A stretch of 13,034 nt of DNA, taken from a virus. Taxonomy: Duplodnaviria > Heunggongvirae > Uroviricota > Caudoviricetes. This document shows positions 1 to 13,034 of this stretch, one piece after another. The DNA is taken from the IMG/VR virus record IMGVR_UViG_2654587571_000008, positions 1 to 13,034 of that record, one strand, 5' to 3'. The position numbers and the translations under genes were made by a program. The notes below the pieces were generated by a model. It made no database searches. It was not told the origin of the DNA and saw only the letters and a list, made by a program, of their open reading frames with translations. Within the stretch, counting starts at the first letter, position 1. Each line of letters begins with the position of its first letter.

Positions 1-68
1 GGTGGCGGCGGCACAGTTGGTGTGGCGGCCTCAGTCCGGAACAATTTGAAAACCAGAACCTCGCTTAG
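1..68 (+). CDS. IS3-family transposase (OrfB) C-terminal fragment; 5' end outside window
   Basis: Codons 3..65 translate to WRRHSWCGGLSPEQFENQNLA followed by TAG at 66..68. From memory this matches the conserved C-terminus of IS3-type OrfB transposases. Confidence 0.7.
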   Translation, partial: WRRHSWCGGLSPEQFENQNLA

Positions 69-98
69 GCCTGTGTCCATATTACGTGGGTAGGATCA
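1..98 (+). mobile_element. Terminal ~98 bp of an IS3-family insertion sequence (right end, including transposase 3' end); body lies outside the window to the left
   Basis: Positions 4..98 are the exact reverse complement of 12940..13034. The element ends ...GGATCA at 98, matching the TGA...TCA termini typical of IS3-family elements (recalled). The transposase reading frame ends inside it. Confidence 0.75.
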
Positions 99-557
99 GA
101 GTTAGTTGTTATACTCAATCAAATCAGCACACTAACTGCTTTAAGTGAGCATCCAAAACTCGGTATCGGCGCTGTTGACATATCACTTTATAACCAGTCG
201 ATATTAACGTCTGAACATAATGGCAATGTTGCAACCATCGAGATAAAACACCATTATCCAAAGGATTTACTTTATCGGCAAGTTCAAGAAGACATCATTT
301 CCGATATTTCAAGAGTAATAGTTTCACCAACTACACACTTTATCCATATAATCCAGCAAAGAACCAAGATTAAAACTCCTTCTTTTGGTCAAGTGAAATT
401 CCTTGAACGTGATGCAAGTGATATCAGCACTTATGTGCAATGTCTTGAGGAGCTAAGTTCATTTCCCAGTAATTTTCATAAAAAAAGTGTATGTATTGAG
501 GTACTTGGTGAAATTATGTCGACATATACCTTTAACGTATATTCATTTGACAACTGA
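99..557 (+). pseudogene. 5'-truncated ORF of unknown function, cut by the IS end; AT-rich, in the bor-like position convergent with Rz1
   Basis: One frame is open from 69 to the TGA at 555..557 (162 codons) in very AT-rich DNA. The first in-frame ATG/GTG is at 393/516 with no Shine-Dalgarno, and the frame runs straight into the IS end at 98/99. Absent from the supplied ORF track because it has no start codon. Confidence 0.4.
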
Positions 558-578
558 TTAATTTGACAATTTTATTGC

Positions 579-836
579 TTAATGGTTAGTTCTCTCTGCA
601 TCTATTTTACGAATATCAGCTTTATCCCGATTGCAGTTAGCCAGCGCAGACAACAGACTCACATTCAGCTCCAGACTGGCACCATACGTCAGCGGATTAG
701 GTATAAACGGTACAGGAGTATCAGAAGTCAGGCTGGGTGGCAGTGGTGCCACCGGAACGCTCACGTAAACTGTCCGCGTACTTCCGCAACCGGTCAGCAG
801 CGGCAGCAGGCACAGCACGTGAAGCACAATCATCAT
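579..836 (-). CDS. Rz1: Rz1-like outer-membrane spanin lipoprotein (o-spanin), overlapping and extending beyond Rz
   Basis: Alternative frame inside the Rz gene. Begins MMIVLHVLCLLPLLTGC (signal peptide plus LLTGC lipobox) followed by a proline-rich region (VPVAPLPPSLTSDTPVPFIPNP). Confidence 0.55.
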   Translation of the reverse strand: MMIVLHVLCLLPLLTGCGSTRTVYVSVPVAPLPPSLTSDTPVPFIPNPLTYGASLELNVSLLSALANCNRDKADIRKIDAERTNH

Positions 837-1113
837 CCGCAACAGCCATTTTGATATCTTCCTGGGTTCTCTGTGACTCCAGTGCGATCTGCTGTTTTGC
901 ATGCTGGTTAGCCTCCAGTACTGTATTGACGATTTGCAGTGATTGCAGGACGTTATTGGTAATGGCAGTTGCCGATTTGGCATTTTGTACAGCCTCATCA
1001 GCACGTTTCTTTTCGTGCTGATATTTGCTGTAGTAGTGATTCGCTGACCAGATGAAAGAGCCAATAACAGTAAAGAAGAAAGCAGAGATAGTCAGCTTAT
1101 AACTCAACTTCAT
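721..1113 (-). CDS. Rz: Rz-like inner-membrane spanin (i-spanin)
   Basis: 130 aa with an N-terminal transmembrane anchor (LTISAFFFTVIGSFIW) and a charged, coiled-coil-like periplasmic domain. Lies immediately downstream of the endolysin and overlaps its 3' end. Confidence 0.7.
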   Translation of the reverse strand: MKLSYKLTISAFFFTVIGSFIWSANHYYSKYQHEKKRADEAVQNAKSATAITNNVLQSLQIVNTVLEANQHAKQQIALESQRTQEDIKMAVADDDCASRAVPAAAADRLRKYADSLRERSGGTTATQPDF

Positions 1114-1573
1114 TTACCACCCCACCAGCCTCTTTAAATCGGGCAATCAGGTCACCGATTTTATGTTCATACTGACCGTAACCTGCACCGGGTAATGAAG
1201 CCCATATATTGCTGCAACGGTCGATTGCCTGACGAATATCGCCGCTATCAATCATAGGTAAAGCGCCACGCTCTTTAATCTGCTGCAATGCCACTGCGTC
1301 CTGGCTTTTGGGGGAGAAGTCTTTCAAACCAAGCTGTTTACGGTAAGCATCCCACCAACGGGAAAGAAGCTGGTAACGTCCGGCGGCTGTTGATTTGAGT
1401 TTGGAGTTTAGCTTGACAAGTTTGCGAGGGTGATCGGAGTAATCAGTGAACAGTTCGCCACCAACAATAACATCATAACCGTGGTTACGTGTCGGTTGTC
1501 GCCCGTTATCCGTTCCTTCTGACCATGCCACCATATCAAGGAAAGCTTTACGCTGGGAATTTAGTACCTGCAT
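1097..1573 (-). CDS. Endolysin, lambda R-type (lytic transglycosylase, phage lysozyme family)
   Basis: 158 aa. N-terminus QRKAFLDMVAWSEGTDNGRQPTRNHGYDVIVGG and the rest match the recalled lambda R sequence almost residue for residue. Confidence 0.9.
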   Translation of the reverse strand: MQVLNSQRKAFLDMVAWSEGTDNGRQPTRNHGYDVIVGGELFTDYSDHPRKLVKLNSKLKSTAAGRYQLLSRWWDAYRKQLGLKDFSPKSQDAVALQQIKERGALPMIDSGDIRQAIDRCSNIWASLPGAGYGQYEHKIGDLIARFKEAGGVVNEVEL

Positions 1574-1576
1574 AAA

Positions 1577-1912
1577 TTACTCCTTAGAGCCACCAAACTT
1601 GTTACCGATTACTCGCATTGCAGCCCCACGAATAGCATCGACACCGATCAGCCCCACGCCACCACCAATGGCAACAGAAAGCGATTTAGGCCATCCGACA
1701 TACTCAAGAGCGGATGCAAAGGTCAGCGTCAGAGCGCCACAGAGCAAAATCTCGAGCGTTTTTCGCTTCCAGCCACCACCACCGCCAAAATAGGCGATGC
1801 GCAAACCAGCCATAACGATCGACATAATCACTGCACCCAGCGGTGTGTCTCCACGCCACCAGCTCTGAAACAACTCCAGCCAGTCCGGCCAGGTATTTGG
1901 GTTATGAGGCAT
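1577..1912 (-). CDS. Holin, lambda S-like (three predicted transmembrane segments)
   Basis: Start chosen at the internal ATG (1912..1910), preceded by GAGGTGAGAG. Three hydrophobic segments and a charged C-terminus, with AGLRIAYFGGGGG and LIGVDAIRGAAMRVI resembling lambda S. Stop is 3 nt before the endolysin start. Confidence 0.6.
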   Translation of the reverse strand: MPHNPNTWPDWLELFQSWWRGDTPLGAVIMSIVMAGLRIAYFGGGGGWKRKTLEILLCGALTLTFASALEYVGWPKSLSVAIGGGVGLIGVDAIRGAAMRVIGNKFGGSKE

Positions 1913-1955
1913 TTCGTCATCTCTCACCTCGCGATATTTGCGGGTGCTGTGTTGG

Positions 1956-1981
1956 AAATAAAAAGGCCACGCAACGTGGCC
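1956..1981 (-). terminator. Intrinsic terminator between the methyltransferase gene and the lysis cassette
   Basis: Perfect 7-bp GC-rich stem GGCCACG/CGTGGCC (1965..1971 and 1975..1981) with a 3-nt loop, followed on the minus-strand RNA by UUUUUAUUU. Confidence 0.6.
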
Positions 1982-1988
1982 ACCAGAA

Positions 1989-3044
1989 TTATTTCCCCAC
2001 CACCAGTTCACTTACCTCTTTCACCGTCTGATTAAACCGCTCTGTCTCAAGCTCAACACCTAACGCCCGACGCCCCAGCGCCATTGCTGCTTTTATTGTG
2101 GAACCGGATCCCATAAAGAAATCAGCAACCAGATCGCCGGGTCGACTACTGGCATTGATTATTTGCCTGAGCATATCCGCCGGTTTCTCACACGGATGTT
2201 TACCCGGGTAGAACTGAACGGGTTTATGCATCCAGACATCGGTATAAGGCACGGAGACTGATACGGAGAAATAGCGCCGGAGAGATTTAAACTCATCCAG
2301 CAATTCAGAATATTTGCGATTCAGTGAATCATAAGATGCCACCAACTGGTGGTGTGGTTGTTCCAGTTGTTGTTCCTGAAACTTCTCTGCCGCTATACGG
2401 GAAAACAGTGCCTGTAACTTCCGGTAGTCAGCCTCATTCGGCAACTGCCACTGACTGGCACCAAACCAGTGGGAAACCATATTTTTCTTACCTGTGGCTT
2501 CGGCAATTTGTTTTGCCGTTATACCCAGTTCGGCACGAGCATCCCTGAAATACGATATCAGCGGTGCCATTATGTGCTGTTTGAGTTCCCTTTCTTTTGC
2601 CGCATAGCCGTCACTTTTGCCGCGATATGGCCCCTGGTAATGTTCAGCAAACAGAACGCGCTCTGTGGCAGGAAAATATGCGCGCAGACTTTCTTTATTA
2701 CACCCATTCCAACGTCCGGACGGCTTCGCCCAGATGATATGGTTAAGCACGTTGAAACGTTCACGCATCATGATCTCAATATCAGATGCCAGGCGATGCC
2801 CACAGAACAGGTAAAGGCTTCCGGCAGGTTTCAACACCCGCCAGAACTGGGCCAGACAGTGGTCCAGCCACTTAAGGTAATCTTCGTCCCCTTTCCACTG
2901 ATTGTCCCAACCGTTGGGTTTCACCTTGAAGTACGGCGGATCGGTAACAATCAGGTCAATGGAATCATCAGGCAGGGACTGAATAAAATGCAGGCAATCA
3001 GCGTTGATTAAATCAACACTGTTTGTTTTTACAGTATTTTTCAT
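1989..3044 (-). CDS. DNA methyltransferase, N6/N4 family (beta-class, orphan)
   Basis: 351 aa with N-terminal motif IV (IVTDPPYF) and C-terminal motif I (DFFMGSGST). No adjacent restriction endonuclease. Confidence 0.85.
   Translation of the reverse strand: MKNTVKTNSVDLINADCLHFIQSLPDDSIDLIVTDPPYFKVKPNGWDNQWKGDEDYLKWLDHCLAQFWRVLKPAGSLYLFCGHRLASDIEIMMRERFNVLNHIIWAKPSGRWNGCNKESLRAYFPATERVLFAEHYQGPYRGKSDGYAAKERELKQHIMAPLISYFRDARAELGITAKQIAEATGKKNMVSHWFGASQWQLPNEADYRKLQALFSRIAAEKFQEQQLEQPHHQLVASYDSLNRKYSELLDEFKSLRRYFSVSVSVPYTDVWMHKPVQFYPGKHPCEKPADMLRQIINASSRPGDLVADFFMGSGSTIKAAMALGRRALGVELETERFNQTVKEVSELVVGK
3017..3036. promoter_or_regulatory. SOS-box-like palindrome (CTGT-N8-ACAG) overlapping codons 3-9 of the methyltransferase
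   Basis: cACTGTttgtttttACAGTA read directly; compare the recalled LexA consensus TACTGTATATATATACAGTA. It is the only CTGT-N8-ACAG site I found in the window. Confidence 0.3.
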
Positions 3045-3193
3045 GGATCAGTAAGCGTAACTCTGGTAGGCTCACTCTGCTTTTGCGCTAAAGCAGTGGG
3101 CCATGGTTCGCTTGTGACCAGTAAGCATGAGCGAATGGCTGGCAGGTGCTACCAACACCCACCAGCCGCCCATTTTCACAAATTAAAAGCCCT

Positions 3194-3388
3194 TCATTGC
3201 TGAAGGCGTCTGTAACAGCCGAACTGGTAATCTGCCAGCCCCGCCATAACCAGCTGGGTCAGTATTAACTGACAGCGTTCGCGTGAAAGGTATGTGTTTT
3301 GTGCAATCTCCCCGACTGTTGCCGGTTCGATGCTTAATTCATTAAAAACAACTTTCGCCGTTTCTGTCATATCTTGCTGTTTTAGCAT
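3194..3388 (-). CDS. Small (64 aa) putative winged-helix/HTH protein
   Basis: Start placed at the ATG at 3388 with AAGGGA about 8 nt upstream (the track ORF begins at 3412). ATVGEIAQNTYLSRERCQLILTQLVMAG looks like a helix-turn-helix. Confidence 0.4.
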   Translation of the reverse strand: MLKQQDMTETAKVVFNELSIEPATVGEIAQNTYLSRERCQLILTQLVMAGLADYQFGCYRRLQQ

Positions 3389-3509
3389 GTCTTTTTCCCT
3401 TCTGGTTAACATGACATACCAATAACTCTTGTCTAAAAAGCCAGCAAGATAAACAGTCAGTATTCACGACCACCAGCGTGTTTACCGTACTGCACCAATG
3501 TTTAATTTA

Positions 3510-3532
3510 TAAAAAAACCGCGAGAACGCGGT
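3510..3532 (-). terminator. Intrinsic terminator downstream of the 176-aa cargo gene
   Basis: 6-bp stem ACCGCG/CGCGGT (3517..3522 and 3527..3532) with a 4-nt loop. The plus-strand A7 run (3510..3516) gives a U7 tract after the hairpin on the minus-strand RNA. Confidence 0.6.
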
Positions 3533-3569
3533 AAGTATTGTTAAAAAACCAACAGTAATTTCACTCAAC

Positions 3570-4100
3570 TTATTTAATACATTCTTTTGCTTGCGCATAA
3601 TAAATTTTATGAGTATTAGCAAGCTTAACGAAGTTATACTTAACTGCCCCTAACAGGGTTCCAACTCTTGTATGCCCTTCCATTAAATGGAGCCCTGTTG
3701 TATTACTTTTCAGCAAAGCTCGATCTATAAAAAATGGTGGTTCGCACCATGTGCCAAAATTACACCAATGCGCTTTTATTTCATCATCCATAAATACATC
3801 ACCTTTACGGGTCATGTAATCTTCAACGACCTCATGCAAAAAATCAGGGCAAGTAGCATTATCCCCGATAGTTAAAAAGTTTTTAGTGGGAAGTTCAATC
3901 AATTTCCATTCAATTTGGTCAATATCAAGATCCCCATAAAGCTTCTGAAATCTGTCATCACCTACCAATCCATAATAAATCTCCTGAATTACAGGAGAGG
4001 GGGCAATGATAGAATATTGCTCACGAAGTATTCTTTCAGCCTCAGGAGCTTCAAATATGGTTCTTTCTGAGAAAATAGGCAGAAGATCTCGGTATAACAT
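3570..4100 (-). CDS. Hypothetical protein (176 aa), AT-rich cargo gene between Q and the lysis genes
   Basis: Long ORF in locally AT-rich DNA, with a GGGGAT Shine-Dalgarno upstream of the ATG and a strong terminator downstream. No family recognised. Confidence 0.5.
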   Translation of the reverse strand: MLYRDLLPIFSERTIFEAPEAERILREQYSIIAPSPVIQEIYYGLVGDDRFQKLYGDLDIDQIEWKLIELPTKNFLTIGDNATCPDFLHEVVEDYMTRKGDVFMDDEIKAHWCNFGTWCEPPFFIDRALLKSNTTGLHLMEGHTRVGTLLGAVKYNFVKLANTHKIYYAQAKECIK

Positions 4101-4132
4101 CCATATCCCCGTGTAAGAAAAAATAATTTAAC

Positions 4133-4152
4133 CCGCTCGGCTGCGGTTTTTT
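4133..4152. terminator. Short GC hairpin with flanking A and T tracts (candidate tR-prime, possibly bidirectional)
   Basis: CCGC tcggct GCGG followed by TTTTTT on the plus strand and preceded by an A-rich run. On the minus strand it sits about 40-55 nt downstream of the predicted late promoter. Confidence 0.35.
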
Positions 4153-4194
4153 GGACTTATCAACGGTAGACACACAAAGCCCATCGTTGAGAAA

Positions 4195-4223
4195 ATCTTA
4201 TCCATGTTTTTTGAAAAATGCAA
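4195..4223 (-). promoter_or_regulatory. Candidate late promoter (PR-prime-like) immediately downstream of the Q gene
   Basis: Minus strand reads TTGCAT, 17-nt spacer, TAAGAT (complement of 4218..4223 and 4195..4200), in the 154-bp gap between Q and the first late gene. Confidence 0.35.
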
Positions 4224-4254
4224 GCATCATGTCGCTATCTTTGTTGAAAATCAT

Positions 4255-5007
4255 TTATCTTGTCACTTTTCTCAATTGCGCTTCAGCATATGCTTCTTCC
4301 TGCCAGCACTTTGTAACCAGTTTATCAATGACGTCTGCATATCCTTTGTACCACTGATAATCCGTCAGGTCTGTTACCAGATTCTGGACATGACGTCGTG
4401 CCAGTGTGGTTGGTAAACGGCTAAATCGGTTTCCATTGCAACGCCCACAAATCTTATAAACAGGCGTGCCATGAAGCCGGGTTCTTTTTTCATCCAGGAC
4501 AATACCTTTACCCTTACATCCTCTGCACGCTGTGCTGACTTCTCCCTTACCATGACAATGCTGACATAGTTCCTTCACCCACTCTTCCTTGATAACAGAT
4601 TCCCCGTTTCTGGAGTGTTTCACCACTTCGCGCAATACATTATGAAATCCAGTACCAGCACAATGCTCACAGCGAGCCTTACTTGCCGCAGATCTGGAAT
4701 AATCAGCAAAGGCAAAATTCACAAGGTAAGGAATGATCTGTAGCCGGGTTTCTTCACTCAATTTGTTCAATGTCGGGTTATCCAGTGCCATCGCGTAATT
4801 GAGCAGACCTTCAATCGCAAACTGAGGATCCTGAACACCAACTTTTGCCAGGAATAAGGCAAAACCCAGTGGTGCTTTCGACTGCACCATCCCCTGCGCA
4901 GCCATCACATCTGTAATTGTTAAACCACCCGAGCCTGTCGCCGGTGCGTCATCACTCAATTTTGGAGATTTTGGGGAGTAATATTTTGGTAAGGCTTCAA
5001 GGTTCAT
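4255..5007 (-). CDS. Q-like late antiterminator with four CxxCxGxG zinc-finger motifs
   Basis: 250 aa with CEHCAGTG, CQHCHGKG, CRGCKGKG and CGRCNGNR. Sits directly upstream of the late promoter/terminator region. Good GGAGAA Shine-Dalgarno. Length agrees with the long Q-like proteins of E. coli prophages (recalled). Confidence 0.55.
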   Translation of the reverse strand: MNLEALPKYYSPKSPKLSDDAPATGSGGLTITDVMAAQGMVQSKAPLGFALFLAKVGVQDPQFAIEGLLNYAMALDNPTLNKLSEETRLQIIPYLVNFAFADYSRSAASKARCEHCAGTGFHNVLREVVKHSRNGESVIKEEWVKELCQHCHGKGEVSTACRGCKGKGIVLDEKRTRLHGTPVYKICGRCNGNRFSRLPTTLARRHVQNLVTDLTDYQWYKGYADVIDKLVTKCWQEEAYAEAQLRKVTR

Positions 5008-5020
5008 GCTCGTTCTCCAC

Positions 5021-6016
5021 TTACGCCAGTACGCCTATTGCCAGCGCACGATCGATAAAACGAAATATCAGCTCCAACTGGGAGCCATACATCTCTTCAA
5101 ATGCCACGGTATCCGCATGCAGCTCGTCGTGATGCTTTCTGCACAAAGGCAACACAAAGAGGTCATGCGCTTTTGTACCCATTCCCCCCTGACCGTGGCC
5201 TATCAGGTGGTGGGGATCATCAGCAAGCTTTCCACAACATGCACACGGCTGTGTCTTAACCCAGCGCGTGTACTTTTCATTAACCCAGCGGCGACGTTTT
5301 GGGCGTAACATAAAAGACTCCGGCGACTCCGGATCCACTTTCAGCGCCAGCACCTTTTTCGCTTTATCCTGGATAATGCTGGTGGCAGGAACCGAAGGCA
5401 CAAGGTCACTTTCCCGGGTGACAGACGGCACAACAGGCTTCGGTAATCTCAGTGCCTTACGGGCTGCACTTTCCGGTAAGGCATCCGCCAGGTCATTACG
5501 AATCAGCCACCAGCACAGTTCCGGCATTGTCACAACGTGACTGTCATCAAAACCGAGATCCCGACGCACAACAGACAACACCCAACGGGCACAGTTATCC
5601 GTTGCCATTGATTCCAGCCGTTCCGTGAACTGATCGCGCAGCTGGTTATCGCAGTGCCAGCAGAGACGGATTGCGCCCGGAGCGTGCCGCATTGTGGTCA
5701 TGTTCTCGCTGTGCCAGTCGGAATGAGGCCACTGGCAGCCTTTTTCACGAAGTAACCAGCTTTCAAGACATTCCACCCCACCAGCACGACGGATCACTGC
5801 CTCATTGCGGAACACGGCCCGAACGGCAGGATCATCCGCCAGCGGTTGTGATGCCGCGGGAACGGCACCACTGGCGAAAGATGAATAACGTTCCGGCTCA
5901 GGCTCCAGCAGGACACGCCCCTGCATAAACAGGGGCATCAGCTCTGAACCGGGCCTGAACAATACGATCCCCATACGCGGGGCAATTTCAGGGGTCAGTA
6001 GTGCTCTCACAGTCAC
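5021..6016 (-). CDS. DUF968-like prophage protein with a C-terminal Cys/His cluster (HNH-like)
   Basis: 331 aa. C-terminus PCACCGK...DPHH...GGMGTKAHDL...PLCRKHHDELH. Nin-region position between KilA-N and Q. Family assignment is from memory. Confidence 0.5.
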   Translation of the reverse strand: MTVRALLTPEIAPRMGIVLFRPGSELMPLFMQGRVLLEPEPERYSSFASGAVPAASQPLADDPAVRAVFRNEAVIRRAGGVECLESWLLREKGCQWPHSDWHSENMTTMRHAPGAIRLCWHCDNQLRDQFTERLESMATDNCARWVLSVVRRDLGFDDSHVVTMPELCWWLIRNDLADALPESAARKALRLPKPVVPSVTRESDLVPSVPATSIIQDKAKKVLALKVDPESPESFMLRPKRRRWVNEKYTRWVKTQPCACCGKLADDPHHLIGHGQGGMGTKAHDLFVLPLCRKHHDELHADTVAFEEMYGSQLELIFRFIDRALAIGVLA

Positions 6017-6017
6017 C

Positions 6018-6827
6018 TCAATGAACGGTATCGAGCAACTTTAACAGCTCGGGGAATCGGGATTCGAAGAAATGCGGCTGCGTCTCGCGCGGATTTGCGG
6101 GACTGGTGATGTTCTTGCCGAACATGCAGCCTTTCGCTGTCAGCGACCAGAATTTTTTGATGTTGTTAATCGCGGTACGGCTGTATCGTTCGCGCTGCTC
6201 GACGATCCCCAGCTTCACCATCTGGTGATATGCCTGATTAGCTGTCAGGCGGATACCATACTGCTTCAGCAGTGCACTCAGTGACAGCGTGGGGCGGCTT
6301 GAGCCATCAGGCGCGTCAGCAGGAGCATCAATGGCATAGCGCGGTGCCAGATTCGGTAAGCCAACAGCCTCCTGGAGTTTCTGACAGGCACCAAGCACTG
6401 AAGAGTTAGACAGGTTTAATTCCCGGCGCATAAAGTCCAGCAGAATCACACCAGCCTGCATCTTGTCAGCAGCCTGTCCGGATAATTTTTCCGGTGCGCT
6501 GGTTACCATATCGAAAGTACGGATCACCTTCAGATGGAATGACGGGCTGATCCACATTGCATAGGCATACACCAGTTCCTTGCAGACATACGTTCCCCGT
6601 TCATTTCCCCCATGAATCACACTCACCGGGTCAACACCCAAATTCTGAGTGTTGGTCAATTCATGAACAAGCTCAACAGTTTGTTGGCTGGAAAGAAACT
6701 TTCCTGGCTCCTTGGTTCTGGCATTTGCACCAGATGCTACTGCTGCGCGATGCAGATCGTTCAGACTGTAACGCCCATAAGCATCACGACGAACTTCAAT
6801 ACCATCAATGACCATCAGATTATTCAT
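6018..6827 (-). CDS. KilA-N domain protein (antirepressor-like)
   Basis: N-terminal ~100 aa (VIDGIEVRRDAYGRYSLNDLHRAA...GTYVCKELVYAYAMWISPSFHLKVIRTF) fits the KilA-N/APSES pattern. GAGGAG Shine-Dalgarno. Confidence 0.65.
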   Translation of the reverse strand: MNNLMVIDGIEVRRDAYGRYSLNDLHRAAVASGANARTKEPGKFLSSQQTVELVHELTNTQNLGVDPVSVIHGGNERGTYVCKELVYAYAMWISPSFHLKVIRTFDMVTSAPEKLSGQAADKMQAGVILLDFMRRELNLSNSSVLGACQKLQEAVGLPNLAPRYAIDAPADAPDGSSRPTLSLSALLKQYGIRLTANQAYHQMVKLGIVEQRERYSRTAINNIKKFWSLTAKGCMFGKNITSPANPRETQPHFFESRFPELLKLLDTVH

Positions 6828-6846
6828 ACTTCGTTTCTCCTCTTAA

Positions 6847-7236
6847 TCAGGCGGCTGCACCCGCCGTTTTCTCGTACTTACTTATAGTGATCTCGACCTT
6901 CCCTTCCGGGATAACCGGTCCCCACTCCACCAGCATTCTTTTCACCTGACTGTCGTCTTCCCACACACCCGCGTGGGTCAGGGCGTCAAACAGCGCCTTG
7001 TTATAGTTGTCCAGATCGCGGATCCGGTTATCCGGAGGAAACAACACGATCTCCACTGAAGCAGGTGCCGACGTTGGTTTTGGCAGACGACGTAACTGCT
7101 CAACTATTGCTGCACACGCCGCGCTCTGGAATTTGCGCCCCGCCGCGCTTATCAGGCTCTTACCTGCAAACGCCCCTTTGTTGGGGTGTCGCCAGTACGT
7201 GTTCACGCTGGGCGGAAAAGGCAGTATTAGCTTCAT
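6847..7236 (-). CDS. rusA: RusA Holliday-junction resolvase
   Basis: 129 aa. LPFPPSVNTYWRH and RDLDNYNKALFDALTHAGVWEDDSQV match the RusA signature, including the catalytic Asp cluster. Confidence 0.85.
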   Translation of the reverse strand: MKLILPFPPSVNTYWRHPNKGAFAGKSLISAAGRKFQSAACAAIVEQLRRLPKPTSAPASVEIVLFPPDNRIRDLDNYNKALFDALTHAGVWEDDSQVKRMLVEWGPVIPEGKVEITISKYEKTAGAAA

Positions 7237-7559
7237 ACTTTCAGGCCCCTCTCATGTAACCAGTGGGCTGCACGCAGCCTGGCGTTTGCCTCACCGGCAA
7301 GCAGTGCGCGGATAATCCCGACCGCCTCGCTGTCGTCGTCCTTCATCGCGGTATGAAGCGTTATCCCCCGGGCCACGCCACGCTTTATCGTGATGACGCC
7401 TTTTTTCTCCAGTGCTCGAAGATGCTCCACCGCTGCATTCACTGAACGGTATCCCAGCATGGTTGCCACCTCCTGATTGGTTGGCGGGAAGCCACGTTCT
7501 TTCTGGTAAGAAATCAGCATATCCAGCACCTGCTGCTGGCATTGAGTTAACGTCGTCAT
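7233..7559 (-). CDS. Standalone LexA N-terminal DNA-binding-domain homolog (no S24 peptidase domain)
   Basis: Residues 1-70 (LTQCQQQVLDMLISYQKERGFPPTNQEVATMLGYRSVNAAVEHLRALEKKGVITIKRGVARGITL) align with the recalled LexA N-terminus, followed by an unrelated 38-aa tail. ATGA overlaps with both neighbouring genes. Confidence 0.7.
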   Translation of the reverse strand: MTTLTQCQQQVLDMLISYQKERGFPPTNQEVATMLGYRSVNAAVEHLRALEKKGVITIKRGVARGITLHTAMKDDDSEAVGIIRALLAGEANARLRAAHWLHERGLKV

Positions 7560-8209
7560 GCAGCCATCTCCCTGACCAGTTTTTCCGCCTGCTGGCGAAC
7601 CTGCGCCAGAAAGGCCTCACCACATGCCTCAAGTTCATCGCGCCCGATGTAGCTGATTGCCGGTCCCTTCCAGGTCTTGTCGAAAACAGCAATAGCACCA
7701 GCGAAGAAAGCGCCTGTCGGCACCTGCTTCTCATCCTTCGGGATAAACCAGGCAGGCAGTTCAAAACCAATACGCCCGCGAATAAAAGCAATATGATCTG
7801 CATCTTCCGGCCACCACACTTCGCTGGTGGCAGCTTTGATCAGGAAAACATAGCGACCGCCTTTATCACGCATGGCACTGGCATGCTTCATGATGTAACG
7901 CATGCCGGTGATGTATTGCCCCTCATGCTGACTGGCGCGGCTGTATGGGGGATTACCAAAGGCAGCACCTTTAAGCTCCGCAAGACGTTCTGACCAGTCA
8001 TGTGCCAGCGCGTTGTCTTCCGCCGTGTAATACGCGGCACATTTGGCGTTATCACCGTCAGTGAACAGATCCAGAACAAACGGACCAAACAGGGTGTTAA
8101 TTCCCCAGAAAATGTTATCCGGCGTGCGCCACTGATCGCCCACTTCCTTCAGTTCATGGGCTGGTTTGTTCCGCAGCTCCACCAGCGCCCGGCAATATTT
8201 ATTACTCAT
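7556..8209 (-). CDS. Phage Dam-type N6-adenine DNA methyltransferase (orphan)
   Basis: FGNPPYS catalytic motif. Start placed at the ATG at 8209, which overlaps the upstream stop as TAATG (the track ORF extends to 8242). Confidence 0.75.
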   Translation of the reverse strand: MSNKYCRALVELRNKPAHELKEVGDQWRTPDNIFWGINTLFGPFVLDLFTDGDNAKCAAYYTAEDNALAHDWSERLAELKGAAFGNPPYSRASQHEGQYITGMRYIMKHASAMRDKGGRYVFLIKAATSEVWWPEDADHIAFIRGRIGFELPAWFIPKDEKQVPTGAFFAGAIAVFDKTWKGPAISYIGRDELEACGEAFLAQVRQQAEKLVREMAA

Positions 8210-8697
8210 TAAGCCCCCACGTAATTCCCTGACAGATACCACTCTTCACCTGATGCAGCCCGCTTGTTGCTTTTCCGTAAACACCGTTCACGACGCGCCA
8301 GAAAATTATTTCGTTCTGGCTGGGAGTGGCTTTCACGGAATGCCGCCATCCACACCGTTGCAGCACGACGGTATAAGCCCCTGGACTCCAGTTCTTCAGC
8401 CTGGCGGGTCAGGCACAAAATCACCCGGGGGTCGTTAGTGCCGACATAGAAATTGCGCACAGGTCTGGTTTCACGAACTGGTTGTGGTTCCGGCTCCTGC
8501 GCTCTCTCAGTCAGGCGCGGGAAATGTCTGCGTGTATCCCCTTCACAACGGTGAGCCACACGCCCACTCTGACGTAACTTGCTTGCTGACTGCAGAACGC
8601 GCTGCCGTGAGTAACCAGCAAAAGCATCTGCAATGTCTCCGGAAGTACACCCCGGATGAGCTTCAATGAATTTCTGAACGTCATTTAACAGACTCAT
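8209..8697 (-). CDS. Putative PerC/ANR-family-like transcriptional regulator with an N-terminal winged-helix-like region
   Basis: C-terminal ESRGLYRRAATVWMAAFRE...RRERCLRK resembles the GLWRRAA..W motif of PerC-type regulators (from memory). Start could be ATG 8697 or GTG 8703. Confidence 0.4.
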   Translation of the reverse strand: MSLLNDVQKFIEAHPGCTSGDIADAFAGYSRQRVLQSASKLRQSGRVAHRCEGDTRRHFPRLTERAQEPEPQPVRETRPVRNFYVGTNDPRVILCLTRQAEELESRGLYRRAATVWMAAFRESHSQPERNNFLARRERCLRKSNKRAASGEEWYLSGNYVGA

Positions 8698-8699
8698 GA

Positions 8700-9641
8700 T
8701 CACCCCCTGAATCCTGCCGGGATCTGGCTGTAGTCCACGTTGTCGTAACTGGATTTGAAGTACGGGTCTTCGCGTTTTTCGGTGTACGTGCTGACGGACG
8801 GCGATAAGCGCAGGGAAAGCTCATCCCATTTTTCCCGCAGCTTCGACGGGCTGAGCACGTTACGGCACCAGAACGGATCGCGGCTGACGCGGCTGTACAT
8901 CTCGCAGATTTGTTTGTGAGTACGACTATCCTGCACACACATCAGGCGAATTTCGTTTGCCCAGGCTGTCCAGTTCGGTTCTTTGGGACGAACCACCTCG
9001 CCGTCACATTCGGCGGCCTGCTCGTACAGGGCGATGATTTTTTTCCAGAGCCACTGTGCACAGGTCAAATCATCCTGCGTTCCCCACTGGCGCTTTTTAG
9101 GGCTGAATACAACCGCATCAGGATGGCGAGTTAAAAACTCCTGTTCAGCCGTCTGCGTGTCCGGTTGCGAAGCGTCCGGACGAGAAGTTTTTTTATCTGA
9201 CGGATCATGTTTTGATTTTACTGACGGATCCCCGCCAGATTCTGACGGGTGAAAACCCGCTTTTTTGCCAGATTTCGACGCATCAAATTTTGACGGGTCA
9301 GATTTTGATGCGTCAGATTTTGACGGGTCAGAATCTGACAGTTGAGAAAATGCCGCTGCCTGAAGCTTCGCAACGTTAAGCTGATAAACATTCGACGCAT
9401 TGCGGTTACCCTGGCGACGCGCCTTACGCGTTAACCAGCCTTCTGCTTCCAGCCGTGCGATAGCCGTTCTGACGGTACTCATCCCCGCGCCAATCTGACG
9501 GGCAATGGTTTCAATTGATGGCCAGCACACACCTTCGTCATTACTGAAATCAGCCAGGCGGGCCATAATTGCCACACTGGATAACTTCATGCCTGATGCA
9601 GCGCAACCATCCCATACATAGCCGGTTAATTTAGTGCTCAT
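8700..9641 (-). CDS. Replication initiator, lambda O-like organisation (N-terminal wHTH, origin iterons inside the gene)
   Basis: 313 aa. N-terminal HTH-like region (WPSIETIARQIGAGMSTVRTAIARLEAEGW). The central low-complexity DPSKSDASKSDPSKFDASKS is encoded by tandem DNA repeats. Confidence 0.65.
   Translation of the reverse strand: MSTKLTGYVWDGCAASGMKLSSVAIMARLADFSNDEGVCWPSIETIARQIGAGMSTVRTAIARLEAEGWLTRKARRQGNRNASNVYQLNVAKLQAAAFSQLSDSDPSKSDASKSDPSKFDASKSGKKAGFHPSESGGDPSVKSKHDPSDKKTSRPDASQPDTQTAEQEFLTRHPDAVVFSPKKRQWGTQDDLTCAQWLWKKIIALYEQAAECDGEVVRPKEPNWTAWANEIRLMCVQDSRTHKQICEMYSRVSRDPFWCRNVLSPSKLREKWDELSLRLSPSVSTYTEKREDPYFKSSYDNVDYSQIPAGFRG
9195..9345. repeat. Iteron array (candidate replication origin) within the initiator gene
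   Basis: Eight or more copies of a TYTGACGG-type unit, including near-perfect 15-bp tandem repeats (gattttgacgggtca / gattttgatgcgtca / gattttgacgggtca at 9301..9345), plus a nearby A/T-rich stretch. Confidence 0.55.
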
Positions 9642-9650
9642 GACCGACCT

Positions 9651-9989
9651 CTATTTCCCTGAATTTACGACGAAACTGTTCGAGCGGACTGAAGCATTCA
9701 TGCTCATAACCTTCGCGGAGGTAGATAACCCGTTGTGTTTCCGGCTCCCAACGAATGACTCTGACGGGCACTCCGTAGTGATCTTTGAACCAGCGGTTAA
9801 CTTGTCGCAAAGGACTGTCTCCTTCTGCCGGTTGAAATCACCCACAGCCCACTCTGCAAAGCTGTGGGTTACAATTTCCCTGTCACCTGGTACATTCACT
9901 GCATAGCAATATTCCACCTTCGCTTTTCCACCCGGTACAGGAAGCGCAATCAGTTGCGAGCGACGGTAGTGTGTTGTTAAACTGTTCAT
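9651..9989 (-). CDS. Hypothetical protein (112 aa) between the CII-like and initiator genes
   Basis: ATGA overlap with the upstream CII-like gene and AGAGG upstream of the following gene. No family recognised. An overlapping plus-strand ORF (9634..9906) makes the strand assignment uncertain. Confidence 0.35.
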
Positions 9990-10543
9990 GCGTTAGTTTC
10001 TCCACAACCAGAAGCAATCGACGCCACGACGCCCGGAGCTGCACACTCGCGGGCGTCATTACTTTCTGAAATGCAAAAGATTTTGTAGACCAGTGCTGCA
10101 TGCTCCTGCAGCTTCGAAATTGAGAGATACAGCTCGTCGTTAATTGCTGTCTTCTCATGCGGTTCCACTACACCGTCTTCGATTGCTGAACGAATCTGTT
10201 TTGAATAACTGCCGATCTGTTCAATGACTTCCAGCAGACGCTGGTTAATATCGGCGTTGTCCACATCCTCGACGTCAGGAAGAGACACAAATACGCCATT
10301 TGCAGACTGCGCCACAGCATCAGCAATGAAGTGAGTGCCACCAGCACGCTGTAAAACCATTGCCCATCCCAGCGGAAAAATCTGATCGCCATCTGCACGA
10401 AGGCGGTTGAATAAAGCGTTCTCTGTTACATCCAGCCAGTCAGCGGCTTCAGCGTAACCACCCGGCAACGCCGCGATAGTTTTTCTGACAGCTTTCACGT
10501 ACCACTCAGGCTGTTTTTCTATTTTCCAGTGATGCTTACCCAC
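9986..10543 (-). CDS. CII-like phage regulatory protein (185 aa)
   Basis: Start placed at GTG 10543, with AAGGAG 6 nt upstream (the track ORF begins at 10648 and would overlap cro). [16 protein letters not shown] resembles CII-type regulators (from memory). Confidence 0.45.
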
Positions 10544-10565
10544 GGCTATCTCCTTAAAACTGTGG

Positions 10566-10814
10566 TTACTTTTCATCTGATGAATCTTTAATCTTTTGAA
10601 AAATATCTGGACGTAATTTTTCTTTTGATATGCCAGTGGTCTTTTCAATGAATATCGAGAGCTTTGCAGGGGGACGCTTTTCTCTGTTCAACCAGTTCCA
10701 GACATGTTGTTGCTTTACTAAATGACCGCTGCTGGCTGTGAGCTTCCGAGCCAATTCTGATTGACCACCAGCCAGAGCGATTGCCTCCGATAAGGCTAAT
10801 TGCTCAGGTGTCAT
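10566..10814 (-). CDS. Cro-like HTH repressor
   Basis: 82 aa with an HTH (QSELARKLTASSGHL). Divergent from the cI-like gene across an operator-rich intergenic region. GGAG Shine-Dalgarno. Confidence 0.7.
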   Translation of the reverse strand: MTPEQLALSEAIALAGGQSELARKLTASSGHLVKQQHVWNWLNREKRPPAKLSIFIEKTTGISKEKLRPDIFQKIKDSSDEK

Positions 10815-10949
10815 AGCTTTCTCCTTTTTTGGTAGTTAAGTTGTTACGAGTTGCAAGAATACAACATTAACAACTTTTATCACAACTTTTAGGTGTTGGA
10901 AAGCTAAAACATAAAGTTGTAACCTCATCAAAAAAGAGAGGGATATGTT
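10815..10949. promoter_or_regulatory. Right operator/promoter region between cro-like and cI-like genes
   Basis: Contains five copies of AAGTTGT/ACAACTT (at about 10838, 10861, 10870, 10882 and 10914) and AGGTGTT. The same sequence blocks recur at 12560..12620. Confidence 0.5.
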
Positions 10950-11636
10950 GTGAAAACACTGGCAGAACGATTAAAGATAGGTAGAGAGAAAGCTGGCATG
11001 AGCCAAGCTCAACTAGCTGAAAAAATTGGACTTTCACAACAATCTGTAGCCAAAATAGAGAATGGCGAAACTCTACAACCGCGCAAAATTAAAGAAATTG
11101 CAAAAGTTTTAGGTGTATCACAAAAGTGGTTACAACTTGGTATTGAAGATAACGCATCCATACCTGATCTTGTTGTAAAAGAAGCAGAAAGCACCGCATT
11201 AGACCCCGATATTTTCGTAAACATTCCTGTTTTAGATGTCGAGTTATCGGCAGGTAACGGATGTCTGGCTGAAATAGTTGAATCAGCTATTGACTGGTTT
11301 CCGTTAAGAAGAGCAGATTTGAGAAAATCTGGCGTATGTGCATCTAATGCCAAGATCGTAAAAATATGGGGGAACAGTTTATTACCGGTTCTCAATAATG
11401 GAGATCTTGTTGCCGTTGATATTTCTCAAACCGTTCCTATTCGTGATGGCGATCTTTATGCCGTACGAGATGGTGTATTGCTAAGGGTTAAAATACTTAT
11501 CAACTTACCTGACGGTGGCTTGATTCTTAGAAGCTTCAACAAAGATGAGTACCCAGATGAAATACTCACCTTTGAAGATAGACGAGCCAGAATTCATGTT
11601 ATAGGTAGGGTATTCTGGTCATCGCGAACTTGGTAA
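10950..11636 (+). CDS. CI/LexA-type prophage repressor (HTH plus S24 peptidase, autocleavable)
   Basis: GTG start with AGAGAGGGA upstream. N-terminal HTH (MSQAQLAEKIGLSQQSVAKIENGE), an Ala-Gly cleavage site (LSAGNG), catalytic Ser (WGNSLLP) and Lys (LLRVKIL). Confidence 0.85.
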   Translation: MKTLAERLKIGREKAGMSQAQLAEKIGLSQQSVAKIENGETLQPRKIKEIAKVLGVSQKWLQLGIEDNASIPDLVVKEAESTALDPDIFVNIPVLDVELSAGNGCLAEIVESAIDWFPLRRADLRKSGVCASNAKIVKIWGNSLLPVLNNGDLVAVDISQTVPIRDGDLYAVRDGVLLRVKILINLPDGGLILRSFNKDEYPDEILTFEDRRARIHVIGRVFWSSRTW

Positions 11637-12509
11637 TGCATCGAAAAGCATTTCTTCAGAAATAATTTTAAGTTTTGCACCATTATCATCCCTATAAGAT
11701 ATAGCTTTTTCGATCTTCCTTCCGTGACTTGAGAATTTCCAATCACGGGAGGAAAGCGTCCCAATTACTAAAAAATCCAACTTTTGAGTAATTCCACTAC
11801 TGATGTTCCCACCAGCATTTTTAATCAAATTTTCAACTACGGCTCTCTTTCCTGCAACAAAAGTGCCTGTAAGACAATAGGTTTTACCCTCTAACTCTAT
11901 CGAAGCCCCTACATCAATAGGCAGCCTGGTCGCCAAACCATCCACCACCCCACTTTCCAAGTCACATCCTGTGAAGTCTACTAATGCCTTATGTAGAGTT
12001 AAACTCTCATCTTCAGTAATAACCCCATCTTTAAGAATTTCCTTTACAAGTGCATAAAGTTTTTTTCCTGGGTAGTTGTTCTTCAAAGCTCCATTTTGCT
12101 CAAGCCACCAATTAAGATATCTTATTTCTTCTTGAGTTAAGTTCCGATCAGCAATTAATCCTTTACATAGTCCATTAAGTAAATGGACATCTACATCCTT
12201 GGAGTAAAAATCAATTTCAGGGATATCAAGAATTTCCCTCTGTATTTGGAGAAGGCTATTTTTAAGGTCATCACGTTCTTCTGATGTGATTATTCCATCC
12301 GCAAGAATATCCGACACCCGTGCTGATAGACTTTTTATAACTCCATTATTGATAATCTGCTTTGCTTCAAGTAACCATGTATCTAAGTAAAGAACCTCCT
12401 CTTCACGGACAACTCCATCTGCAATGATTCCATCAATGATGCTAATCAAGTTAGCAAATAACTTGTCCCGGTTCTGTGTGTAATTAAAAGCGTAAAGCGC
12501 GTCTTCCAT
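11619..12509 (-). CDS. Uncharacterised protein with four N-terminal DG-x-I-T-x-EE repeats (TerB-like?) and a C-terminal BRCT-like domain; candidate superinfection-exclusion/defence gene
   Basis: Start placed at ATG 12509, with AGGAGG 5 nt upstream. C-terminus GKTYCLTGTFVAGKRAVVENLIKNAGGNISSGITQKLDFLVIGTL...AKLKIISEEMLFDAL follows the BRCT pattern of NAD-ligase C-termini. The 3' end overlaps the cI-like gene by 18 bp. Confidence 0.6.
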   Translation of the reverse strand: MEDALYAFNYTQNRDKLFANLISIIDGIIADGVVREEEVLYLDTWLLEAKQIINNGVIKSLSARVSDILADGIITSEERDDLKNSLLQIQREILDIPEIDFYSKDVDVHLLNGLCKGLIADRNLTQEEIRYLNWWLEQNGALKNNYPGKKLYALVKEILKDGVITEDESLTLHKALVDFTGCDLESGVVDGLATRLPIDVGASIELEGKTYCLTGTFVAGKRAVVENLIKNAGGNISSGITQKLDFLVIGTLSSRDWKFSSHGRKIEKAISYRDDNGAKLKIISEEMLFDALPSSR

Positions 12510-12559
12510 ACAACCTCCTTTTTTTGATAATCCTTGCACTCCTTGGCTACTCGTTCAAA

Positions 12560-12625
12560 CCACATAAAGTTGTTGACAACATTCAAAACCACAACTAAAT
12601 TACAACTTAAAGGTGTTAAAACAAC
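12560..12625 (+). promoter_or_regulatory. Left operator/promoter region with a PL-like rightward promoter
   Basis: Consensus -35 TTGACA (12573..12578), 17-nt spacer, -10 TAAATT (12596..12601). An imperfect dyad AAGTTGT-TG-ACAACAT (12567..12582) overlaps the -35. Operator motifs are shared with the right operator region. Confidence 0.5.
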
Positions 12626-12697
12626 GAACAGGCAGGACGCCCACGAAGTAGCCGCCTGGGGCATATGAAGTCCAGGATGATTCGTTAGCAACAAAAA

Positions 12698-12729
12698 AGC
12701 GCCCTACAGGACGCTTAGCTCTTTAACAA
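12698..12729 (+). promoter_or_regulatory. Candidate antitermination (nut-like) site: boxB-like hairpin followed by an rrn-type BoxA
   Basis: Hairpin AGCGCCC-uaca-GGACGCU (12698..12715, one mismatch), then GCTCTTTAACAA (12718..12729), identical to the recalled core of the E. coli rrn BoxA. It lies in the leader between the promoter and the first gene. Confidence 0.45.
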
Positions 12730-12774
12730 TCTGGTCCCCATCAACAAGTAACTGATAACTTGAGGAGGTGTGAA

Positions 12775-12942
12775 ATGCACAAAACAGAACCAAAAATCGT
12801 CGCACCCGGATACACAAATGAGGAAATTTACGAGTGGATGGCAAAGAAGCTGGCAGCTATAAACCAGCTTCGTGAAGTGCTGTCTTATCGACAGGAAACA
12901 ATAGACTCCTTAAAAAAACTGGATCAGGAAATCACGGTTTGA
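12775..12942 (+). CDS. Small ORF (55 codons) of unknown function, probably 3'-truncated by the IS; stop codon supplied by the IS terminus
   Basis: Strong AGGAGG Shine-Dalgarno 6 nt upstream of the ATG. The TGA at 12940..12942 is the first three bases of the IS end. Confidence 0.45.
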   Translation: MHKTEPKIVAPGYTNEEIYEWMAKKLAAINQLREVLSYRQETIDSLKKLDQEITV

Positions 12943-13034
12943 TCCTACCCACGTAATATGGACACAGGCCTAAGCGAGGTTCTGGTTTTCAAATTGTTCC
13001 GGACTGAGGCCGCCACACCAACTGTGCCGCCGCC
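12940..13034 (-). mobile_element. Terminal 95 bp of a second, inverted IS3-family copy; body lies outside the window to the right
   Basis: Exact reverse complement of 4..98. The window ends inside the element. Confidence 0.75.
12970..13034 (-). CDS. IS3-family transposase (OrfB) C-terminal fragment; 5' end outside window
   Basis: Mirror image of 1..68, with the stop codon TAG at 12972..12970 on the minus strand. Confidence 0.7.
   Translation of the reverse strand, partial: RRHSWCGGLSPEQFENQNLA

Follow-up and report, generated by a model that had tools for sequence, protein, structure and literature searches.

Putative operators of a 434-like repressor at two divergent control regions of an e14-like Escherichia coli prophage, one of them upstream of a BRCT-domain gene

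Introduction

In phage lambda, the genes cI and cro are divergently transcribed, the CI repressor combines a helix-turn-helix (HTH) domain with a self-cleaving S24 domain, and one dyad consensus recurs at two control regions, where the operators overlap the lytic promoters PR and PL. In phage 434, the outer bases of the operator are ACAA/TTGT and are read by Gln28 and Gln29. The 434 operators are 14 bp long, with the outer four bases on each side conserved (PMC1636474), and the lambdoid phage 933W has a left operator region that lacks OL3 (PMC5977221). Here we describe a locus of the same general plan in a 13,034-nucleotide stretch of viral DNA (positions 1 to 13,034 of IMG/VR virus record IMGVR_UViG_2654587571_000008; hereafter the window). 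This segment is 100% identical to the chromosome of E. coli PS1Thumoskin9, where it adjoins icd, and its host element is an e14-like lambdoid prophage with the genes intE and xisE.

As in lambda, a cro-like and a cI-like gene diverge here, and one dyad consensus stands at two control regions, ~1.7 kb apart, overlapping the predicted lytic promoters. The right region (OR) separates cro from cI, and the left region (OL) lies upstream of a gene for a BRCT-domain protein. We propose that the ACAACTT dyads in both regions are probably the operators of the prophage's own 434-like, CI-type repressor. More tentatively, and from the geometry of the sites, we suggest that the repressor also activates the BRCT-domain gene.

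Results

A 15-bp dyad recurs at both control regions

From left to right in window coordinates, the genes run ymfL, the cro-like gene (10566-10814, minus strand), the cI-like repressor gene (10950-11636, plus strand), the BRCT-domain gene (11619-12509, minus strand) and a small open reading frame (ORF); cro and cI diverge from a 135-bp spacer. An earlier note on this DNA, made without database searches, had listed four words shared by the two control regions as presumed operators of the repressor, and all of them lie where it had placed them. ACAACTT, or its complement AAGTTGT, occurs eight times in the window (10838(-), 10870(+), 10882(+), 10914(-), 12567(-) and 12602(+), plus 3348 and 11132), against 2.17 copies expected, a count that none of 200 shuffles reached, and six of the eight copies fall inside the two control regions. 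The words ACAACATT (10861 and 12576), CACAACT (10881 and 12590) and AGGTGTT (10891 and 12611) follow one another in identical left-to-right order in both regions, just as had been claimed. At the level of the pentamer ACAAC/GTTGT, the 135-bp cro/cI spacer holds five copies and the 116 bp upstream of the BRCT gene hold six, compared with 0.27 per 100 bp elsewhere in the window, so that the control regions are 13 to 19 times denser.

The four-word list did not, however, capture the operator unit. This is a dyad of 15 bp, ACAACTT-N-AAGTTGT (ACAAC-N5-GTTGT), present in two full copies per region; the left-region CACAACT, the right-region ACAACATT, the ACAACTT at 10870 and the AAGTTGT at 10838 are lone half-sites without partners. 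When 15-mers were scored against the palindrome ACAACTTNAAGTTGT with a cut-off of at least 12/14, exactly four in the window passed, all within the two control regions and two in each, whereas 1000 first-order Markov simulations produced 0.066 such dyads on average and never more than 2. In all four, one half is an exact ACAAC and the other is degenerate (ACACC, AAAAC or ACCAC).

In the right region, OR-b (10882-10896; ACAACTTTTAGGTGT, or ACAACTT-T-TAGGTGT; 12/14) is 96% conserved and was found in 62 of 62 distinct loci, and OR-c (10906-10920; AAAACATAAAGTTGT, or AAAACAT-A-AAGTTGT; 12/14) is 98% conserved and lies, in an OR3-like position, inside the spacer of the putative cI promoter, PRM. 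Their centres are 24-25 bp apart across loci. In the left region, OL-a (12559-12573; ACCACATAAAGTTGT, or ACCACAT-A-AAGTTGT; 12/14) is 99% conserved and reads ACAACATAAAGTTGT in Proteus and Providencia, and OL-c (12602-12616; ACAACTTAAAGGTGT, or ACAACTT-A-AAGGTGT; 13/14) covers the predicted start of the rightward lytic promoter, PL; the two are 43 bp apart in 59 of the 59 loci scored. OL-c is flipped in about one third of the relatives described below (ACACCTTAAAGTTGT against ACAACTTAAAGGTGT), which is the behaviour expected of a true dyad.

Two other sites resemble these. Outside the window, a fifth dyad scoring 12/14, ACAACTTTATGCTGT, lies upstream of xisE at L001:16409-16423, within a frameshifted ORF just before the excisionase gene, and is very similar to the reverse complement of OL-a. 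Within cI, at 11124-11138, AAGTGGT-T-ACAACTT presents the two half-site types everted in the codons for QKWLQLG, probably a coding coincidence.

Conservation in relatives

The relatives collected were E. coli genomes at 87% and 73% DNA identity, contigs labelled Serratia, Proteus, Providencia and Pseudomonas lundensis with cI identities of 57-71%, a further 80 viral contigs, and contigs from Plesiomonas and Cronobacter. In all of them cro is followed by a control region, cI, the convergent BRCT gene and a second control region, the layout being the same in the Serratia, Proteus, Providencia, Plesiomonas and Cronobacter contigs. Across 17 representatives, in which cI identity falls as low as 57%, the four dyads are 90-99% identical to those of the window and the stretches between conserved blocks 38-42% identical. 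One member of the set, the contig labelled Pseudomonas lundensis (L004), carries the module with 71% cI identity and enterobacterial-type operators, and could reflect contamination, mislabelling or horizontal transfer.

Single half-sites are conserved as well. AAGTTGT at 10838-10844 (minus strand), which would fall at about +6 to +12 when counted from the start of the leftward lytic promoter PR, is kept in all representatives and shows 99% column identity in 17 diverged relatives beside a stretch at 38%; no dyad partner was found for it. ACAAC at 10861-10865 (plus strand) abuts the PR -10 and is 91% conserved, being absent in the Proteus and Providencia relatives. ACAAC at 10870-10874 (plus strand), in the PR spacer and 12 bp from the ACAAC of OR-b, is 99% conserved and is kept in all representatives though its linker to OR-b varies (TTTTATC, TTTTGCA, CAAATTA and CATAGCA in distant relatives). 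In the left region, ACAAC at 12591-12595 (plus strand), just upstream of the PL -10, is 95% conserved among the 17 representatives and absent in the Plesiomonas relative. Finally, ATGTTGT at 10944-10950 overlaps the GTG start codon of cI, 30 bp beyond OR-c, and reads AAGTTGTG in most relatives. Full dyads framed at 10861, 10870 and 12591 were tried and rejected, as no inverted partner lies at spacings of 5 to 9 bases, and a single fixed spacing was likewise rejected, the gap to the next ACAAC being 12 bp in OR and 11 bp in OL. Between GTTGT and ACAAC lies a gap of 16 bp in OR and of 17 bp in OL. These half-sites may be hemi-sites for cooperative binding, a weak stand-in for OR1, or Cro sites.

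By comparison, ACAACATT at 12576, absent in most diverged relatives, and ACAAC at 12621 are not conserved. This bears on the dyad that had been drawn across the PL -35 in the earlier note (AAGTTGT-TG-ACAACAT): GTTGT and ACAAC do flank the hexamer, but the right arm, which takes in ACAACATT at 12576, is unconserved in most diverged relatives, so the conserved dyad there is instead ACCACATAAAGTTGT at 12559-12573 (OL-a), which touches the -35 by one base.

The occurrence of GATGT at both OR-b and OL-c of loci L002 and L006 had prompted the idea that the operators change in concert with the repressor, which was rejected: among loci with 100% identical cI (L027, L032 and L036), the G/A state varies independently at OR-b and OL-c.

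Repressor and Cro-like proteins

The cI gene encodes 228 amino acids from a GTG start, with Pfam HTH_3 and Peptidase_S24 domains. Of the features of self-cleavage, the Ala-Gly site is found at Ala101-Gly102, and S143 and K181 do not vary among relatives. The best solved-structure match of its DNA-binding domain is the 434 repressor (E 4e-13, ~45% identity), SQQSVAKIENG aligning with 434 TQQSIEQLENG such that Gln-Gln-Ser stands at the start of the recognition helix (helix 3); Q30 and Q31 are invariant in relatives. The half-site of the window also starts with ACAA, which fits the 434 reading, with the tetramers seven bases apart (15 bp) at all four sites rather than six as in 434. The operator reading draws together the motif statistics, the conservation in relatives and a 434-like recognition helix, and the proposal that these motifs are the repressor's operators fits all three.

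The cro-like gene encodes an 82-amino-acid protein of the YdaS HTH family (Pfam PF15943, E 7.8e-15) with a weak match to the solved Cro 3bd1. Within its recognition helix, KQQHVWNW, residues K34, Q35, Q36, W39, N40 and W41 are invariant in 7 relatives, and the form KQQ(Q/H)VWNW is kept by Cro in all of them. The same motifs are probably operators of this Cro too, which may, at a guess, read the same half-site as CI.

Two promoter pairs with a shared geometry

Conservation points to four promoters, seen as paired hexamers around diverged spacers of fixed length, with PR back to back with PRM and PL back to back with a promoter facing the BRCT gene, P_brct; starts were predicted by placing +1 seven bases past the -10. 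PL (rightward; -35 TTGACA 12573-12578, 17-bp spacer, -10 TAAATT 12596-12601, predicted start 12608) is the best promoter-like site of the region, at 10/12 of the consensus, and the sole one reported by a promoter scan; its -35 is 98% and its -10 95% conserved around a spacer at 41%. PR (leftward; -35 TTGTGA 10885-10880, 18-bp spacer, -10 TATTCT 10861-10856, predicted start 10849) has a conserved -35, positioned from the conserved -10 and the 18-bp spacing, and a -10 that is TATAAT in most relatives and also TATGAT, TACAAT or TATATT, with T-A-x-x-x-T kept throughout. For PRM (rightward; -35 TTGGAA 10896-10901, 18-bp spacer, -10 TAACCT 10920-10925, predicted start 10932), 61 of the 62 distinct loci have TTGGAA as the -35 and the other has TTGGAT, and the -10 variants (TAACCT, TAATCT, TAGTCT, TAAAAT and TAGGCT) retain T, A and the final T. 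P_brct (leftward; -35 TTGAAC 12558-12553, 17-bp spacer, extended -10 TG-n-AAGGAT 12538-12530 with C as n in the window, predicted start 12523) has a -35 that directly abuts OL-a and is TTGATT in most relatives; its -10 is 90% conserved next to a spacer at 42%, and the 17-bp spacing is invariant despite the divergence of the spacer. This footprint, back to back with PL, fits the second divergent promoter pair that had been postulated.

Relative to the predicted starts, OR-b is centred at -40 of PR, whose -35 it overlaps by 4 bp, and at -43 of PRM; OR-c is centred at about -19 of PRM, OL-a at -42 of PL and -43 of P_brct, and OL-c at +2 of PL. At OR-b/PRM and at OL-a/P_brct alike, 31 bp separate the dyad centre from the first -10 base, and the degenerate half-site faces the -35. 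Given this shared geometry, and a predicted distance between divergent starts of 83 bp (PR/PRM) and 85 bp (PL/P_brct), the left region resembles a second copy of the right-hand switch. It differs from the right region in that its extra dyad lies over the PL start, on the lytic side, and not inside the lysogenic promoter.

A model of the switch and its alternatives

From the dyads and promoter footprints we infer that CI and Cro bind at these sites and that binding there represses and activates transcription. In the lysogen, a CI dimer on OR-b would cover the -35 of PR, a dimer on OL-a would abut the PL -35 and a dimer on OL-c would cover the PL start, the three together silencing PR and PL. 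Each region would in addition hold a weak back-to-back promoter, PRM driving cI and P_brct driving the BRCT gene, which CI at OR-b and OL-a would stimulate in the way of lambda CI at OR2. Negative autoregulation of cI, as at OR3, would come from OR-c within the PRM spacer. Upon RecA-stimulated self-cleavage of CI, both lytic promoters would open, and cI and the BRCT gene would lose their activator. A dyad at about -43 of both PRM and P_brct makes activation of cI and of the BRCT gene the most likely consequence of repressor binding there, and the earlier suggestion that the repressor might control the BRCT gene is in keeping with a P_brct footprint whose geometry copies that of PRM. It is conceivable, as a provisional view, that the OL-a dimer would both silence PL and, in the manner of lambda OR2, activate the divergent P_brct, the left region being a second copy of the switch.

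The extended -10 of P_brct (AAGGAT in 51 of 62 distinct loci, TG in 53 of 62) belongs to a class of promoters that often need no activator, which makes a constitutive P_brct the main alternative. The dyads would then silence PR and PL, P_brct would be constitutive or independently regulated, and the position of OL-a would be a by-product of compactness, since with PL and P_brct back to back any site at the PL -35 falls ~40 bp upstream of the divergent start. We regard this as rather unlikely, because the 31-bp distance from dyad centre to -10 matches that of OR-b and PRM, the degenerate half faces the -35 in both, and the 43-bp and 17-bp spacings are invariant across loci, a regularity beyond what compactness requires.

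It is improbable that the ACAAC repeats, or some of them, are instead bound mainly by Cro alone, by the CII-like YmfL or by a host factor, with direct repeats of the form ACAAC-N4-ACAAC-N7-ACAAC as the real unit. Such a binder would account for conserved direct-repeat half-sites that have no dyad partners (10861, 10870 and 12591), Cro does have a KQQ recognition helix, and a CP76/CII-family gene adjoins cro; yet the four best sites are dyads, one of them flipped in relatives, CI carries the 434-type Gln-Gln-Ser helix that reads ACAA in 434, and sites for a lambda-type CII are normally found at establishment promoters rather than within PR and PL. That the two regions are alike through common descent or gene conversion of a duplicated control region, now functionless in a defective prophage, is highly improbable: an IS3 does cut the PL operon ~330 bp past PL, two IS3 copies bracket the segment and the degenerate half-site shows G/A changes among loci with identical cI, but the dyads stay 90-99% identical where cI is 57-80% and neighbouring bases ~40% identical, and the layout recurs in many intact-looking prophage contigs of 30-60 kb.

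Several observations nevertheless weigh against repressor operators that also activate the BRCT gene. The three operators per region of lambda (OR1-3 and OL1-3) are absent, each region holding two full dyads, and the window contains no further 15-mer scoring at least 12/14 that could serve as a third (an OR1 or OL2 equivalent); as 933W lacks OL3, two-site left operators do occur naturally, and the three-operator feature is not universal. The model leaves four or five conserved single half-sites unaccounted for. PR, PRM and P_brct are poor sigma-70 matches in this sequence (7-8/12) and went unreported by the promoter scan, and P_brct, with its extended -10, is of a possibly activator-independent class. 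From 10869 to 10925 nearly every base is conserved, so that conservation alone cannot tell operators from promoter elements there. In addition, a literature search found no description of the operator strings.

The BRCT-domain gene

The gene product, of 296 amino acids, was rightly called a BRCT-domain protein in the earlier note (Pfam PF00533, E 1.3e-6, in agreement with the RefSeq annotation). It is a full-length match to phrog_3989, a family without assigned function, and always adjoins this cI family; its more than 350 homologues in Enterobacterales are named only BRCT domain protein or, wrongly, ligase. A structure model of mediocre confidence (predicted local distance difference test score 68) suggests two helical repeats followed by a BRCT fold, and a fold search with this model matched only the BRCT domain, which appeared closest to the ligase and RFC1 types. 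Pfam gave no match for the N-terminal 199 residues. A known defence system was considered and rejected, PADLOC returning only a weak match to the candidate PDC-S48, and a literature search by title and abstract for BRCT together with prophage repressor or anti-phage functions found nothing relevant.

The cI and BRCT genes lie tail to tail with an 18-bp overlap (11619-11636), which would set transcription from PRM and from P_brct on converging paths, and the end of cI contains a weak terminator-like site on the minus strand (11587-11564). In Vibrio phage K139, orf2 encodes a full-length homologue of the BRCT protein (33% identity) immediately after cI; the place of orf2 in the lysogenic cI-orf2-glo-int operon fits expression of the BRCT gene in the lysogen here.

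An internal deletion of the BRCT gene, with the left operators intact, was found in 25 of 72 E. coli genomes that carry the module, which indicates that the gene is dispensable for keeping the module. The deletion, at L002:4140-4215 and in 24 other E. coli genomes, marks one clade (cI 93% identical) that has lost most of the gene; this clade retains OL-a, OL-c and PL, and its P_brct TG and -10 are altered (GGC AAGGGT).

Distribution and surroundings of the module

Of 5426 complete E. coli genomes, 72 contain both cro and cI with coverage of at least 80%. Among phage records, the best tblastn identity to the window cI was 44.5%, and the DNA of the immunity region had zero matches.

On the far side of cro, ymfL, a CII-family gene (Phage_CP76) on the minus strand, adjoins it. 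Downstream of PL lies the small rightward ORF (12775-12942, plus strand), whose 55-amino-acid product corresponds to positions 1-55 of the 68 in the phrog_1744 profile and whose TGA stop is supplied by the first bases of an IS3 end. The window ends, 4-98 and 12940-13034, are exact reverse complements of 95 nucleotides: the whole 12.8-kb segment is flanked by two IS3 copies in inverted orientation, and each window end is the same IS3 terminus. With the PL operon severed by IS3 ~330 bp past PL, this copy of the prophage is probably defective. Between the small ORF and PL, a minus-strand terminator-like hairpin (12690-12716; AAGCGTCCTGTAGGGCGCTT followed by TTTTTTG) would halt leftward transcription before it reaches the left control region. 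Neither the PL leader nor the control regions matched any Rfam structured RNA at E values up to 1.

Discussion

These results provide an operator and promoter map for an immunity type that 72 of the 5426 complete E. coli genomes carry and that also occurs in several other genera of enterobacteria, and they extend the 434-type reading of ACAA to a 15-bp spacing. In addition, they single out a simple system, occurring in nature, where the repressor of a prophage, bound at the left operator, may itself turn on expression of an accessory gene. Should this be true, the locus would be a useful model of the way prophages tie genes expressed only in the lysogen to the switch's state, and cro, cI and the BRCT gene would form a three-gene immunity module whose conservation reaches from Escherichia as far as Proteus and Plesiomonas. 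The BRCT protein would then be made only while the repressor is intact and might serve a lysogen-specific exclusion or a function linked to DNA damage, giving a starting point for the study of a widespread protein that has so far gone unstudied.

As far as can be read from its sequence, the locus is a lambda-type switch in function and layout with a 434-type reading head. The likeness to lambda extends to geometry: OR2 of lambda (37974-37990) is centred at -42 of PRM when the start is taken at the first base of cI, the lambda cI message being leaderless, and the corresponding dyad here is at about -43, with an OR3-like dyad inside PRM; the distance between the PR and PRM starts in lambda is roughly the same as the 83 bp predicted here. 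Lambda differs in its 17-bp operators of other sequence, three per region, compared with 15 bp and two full dyads here, and in the presence of OR1, for which we found no equivalent; conserved orphan half-sites are a feature of the present locus. Moreover, lambda rexAB is co-transcribed with cI, whereas the accessory gene here is convergent to cI, with its own PRM-like promoter at OL.

With 434 the locus shares the Gln-Gln-Ser start of helix 3, and the outer ACAA bases of the half-site would match. The 434 operators are 14 bp with three dyads per region, in contrast to 15 bp (ACAA-N7-TTGT) and two here; bases five to seven of the half-site (CTT) are also conserved here, unlike in 434, and residue 35 of cI is Lys where 434 has Gln33, and the immunity is different. 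Phage 933W, comparable in its left operators, has an unrelated repressor and operator sequences and three OR sites. In K139, the orf2 homologue follows cI directly in the cI-orf2-glo-int operon transcribed in lysogens; that phage is P2-like, however, and its orf2 is co-transcribed with cI, whereas the BRCT gene here lies on the opposite strand with its own promoter. Apart from the arrangement of the left promoter, this is an ordinary lambda-type control region, and the left-hand PRM-like promoter for a convergent BRCT gene is possibly a new arrangement.

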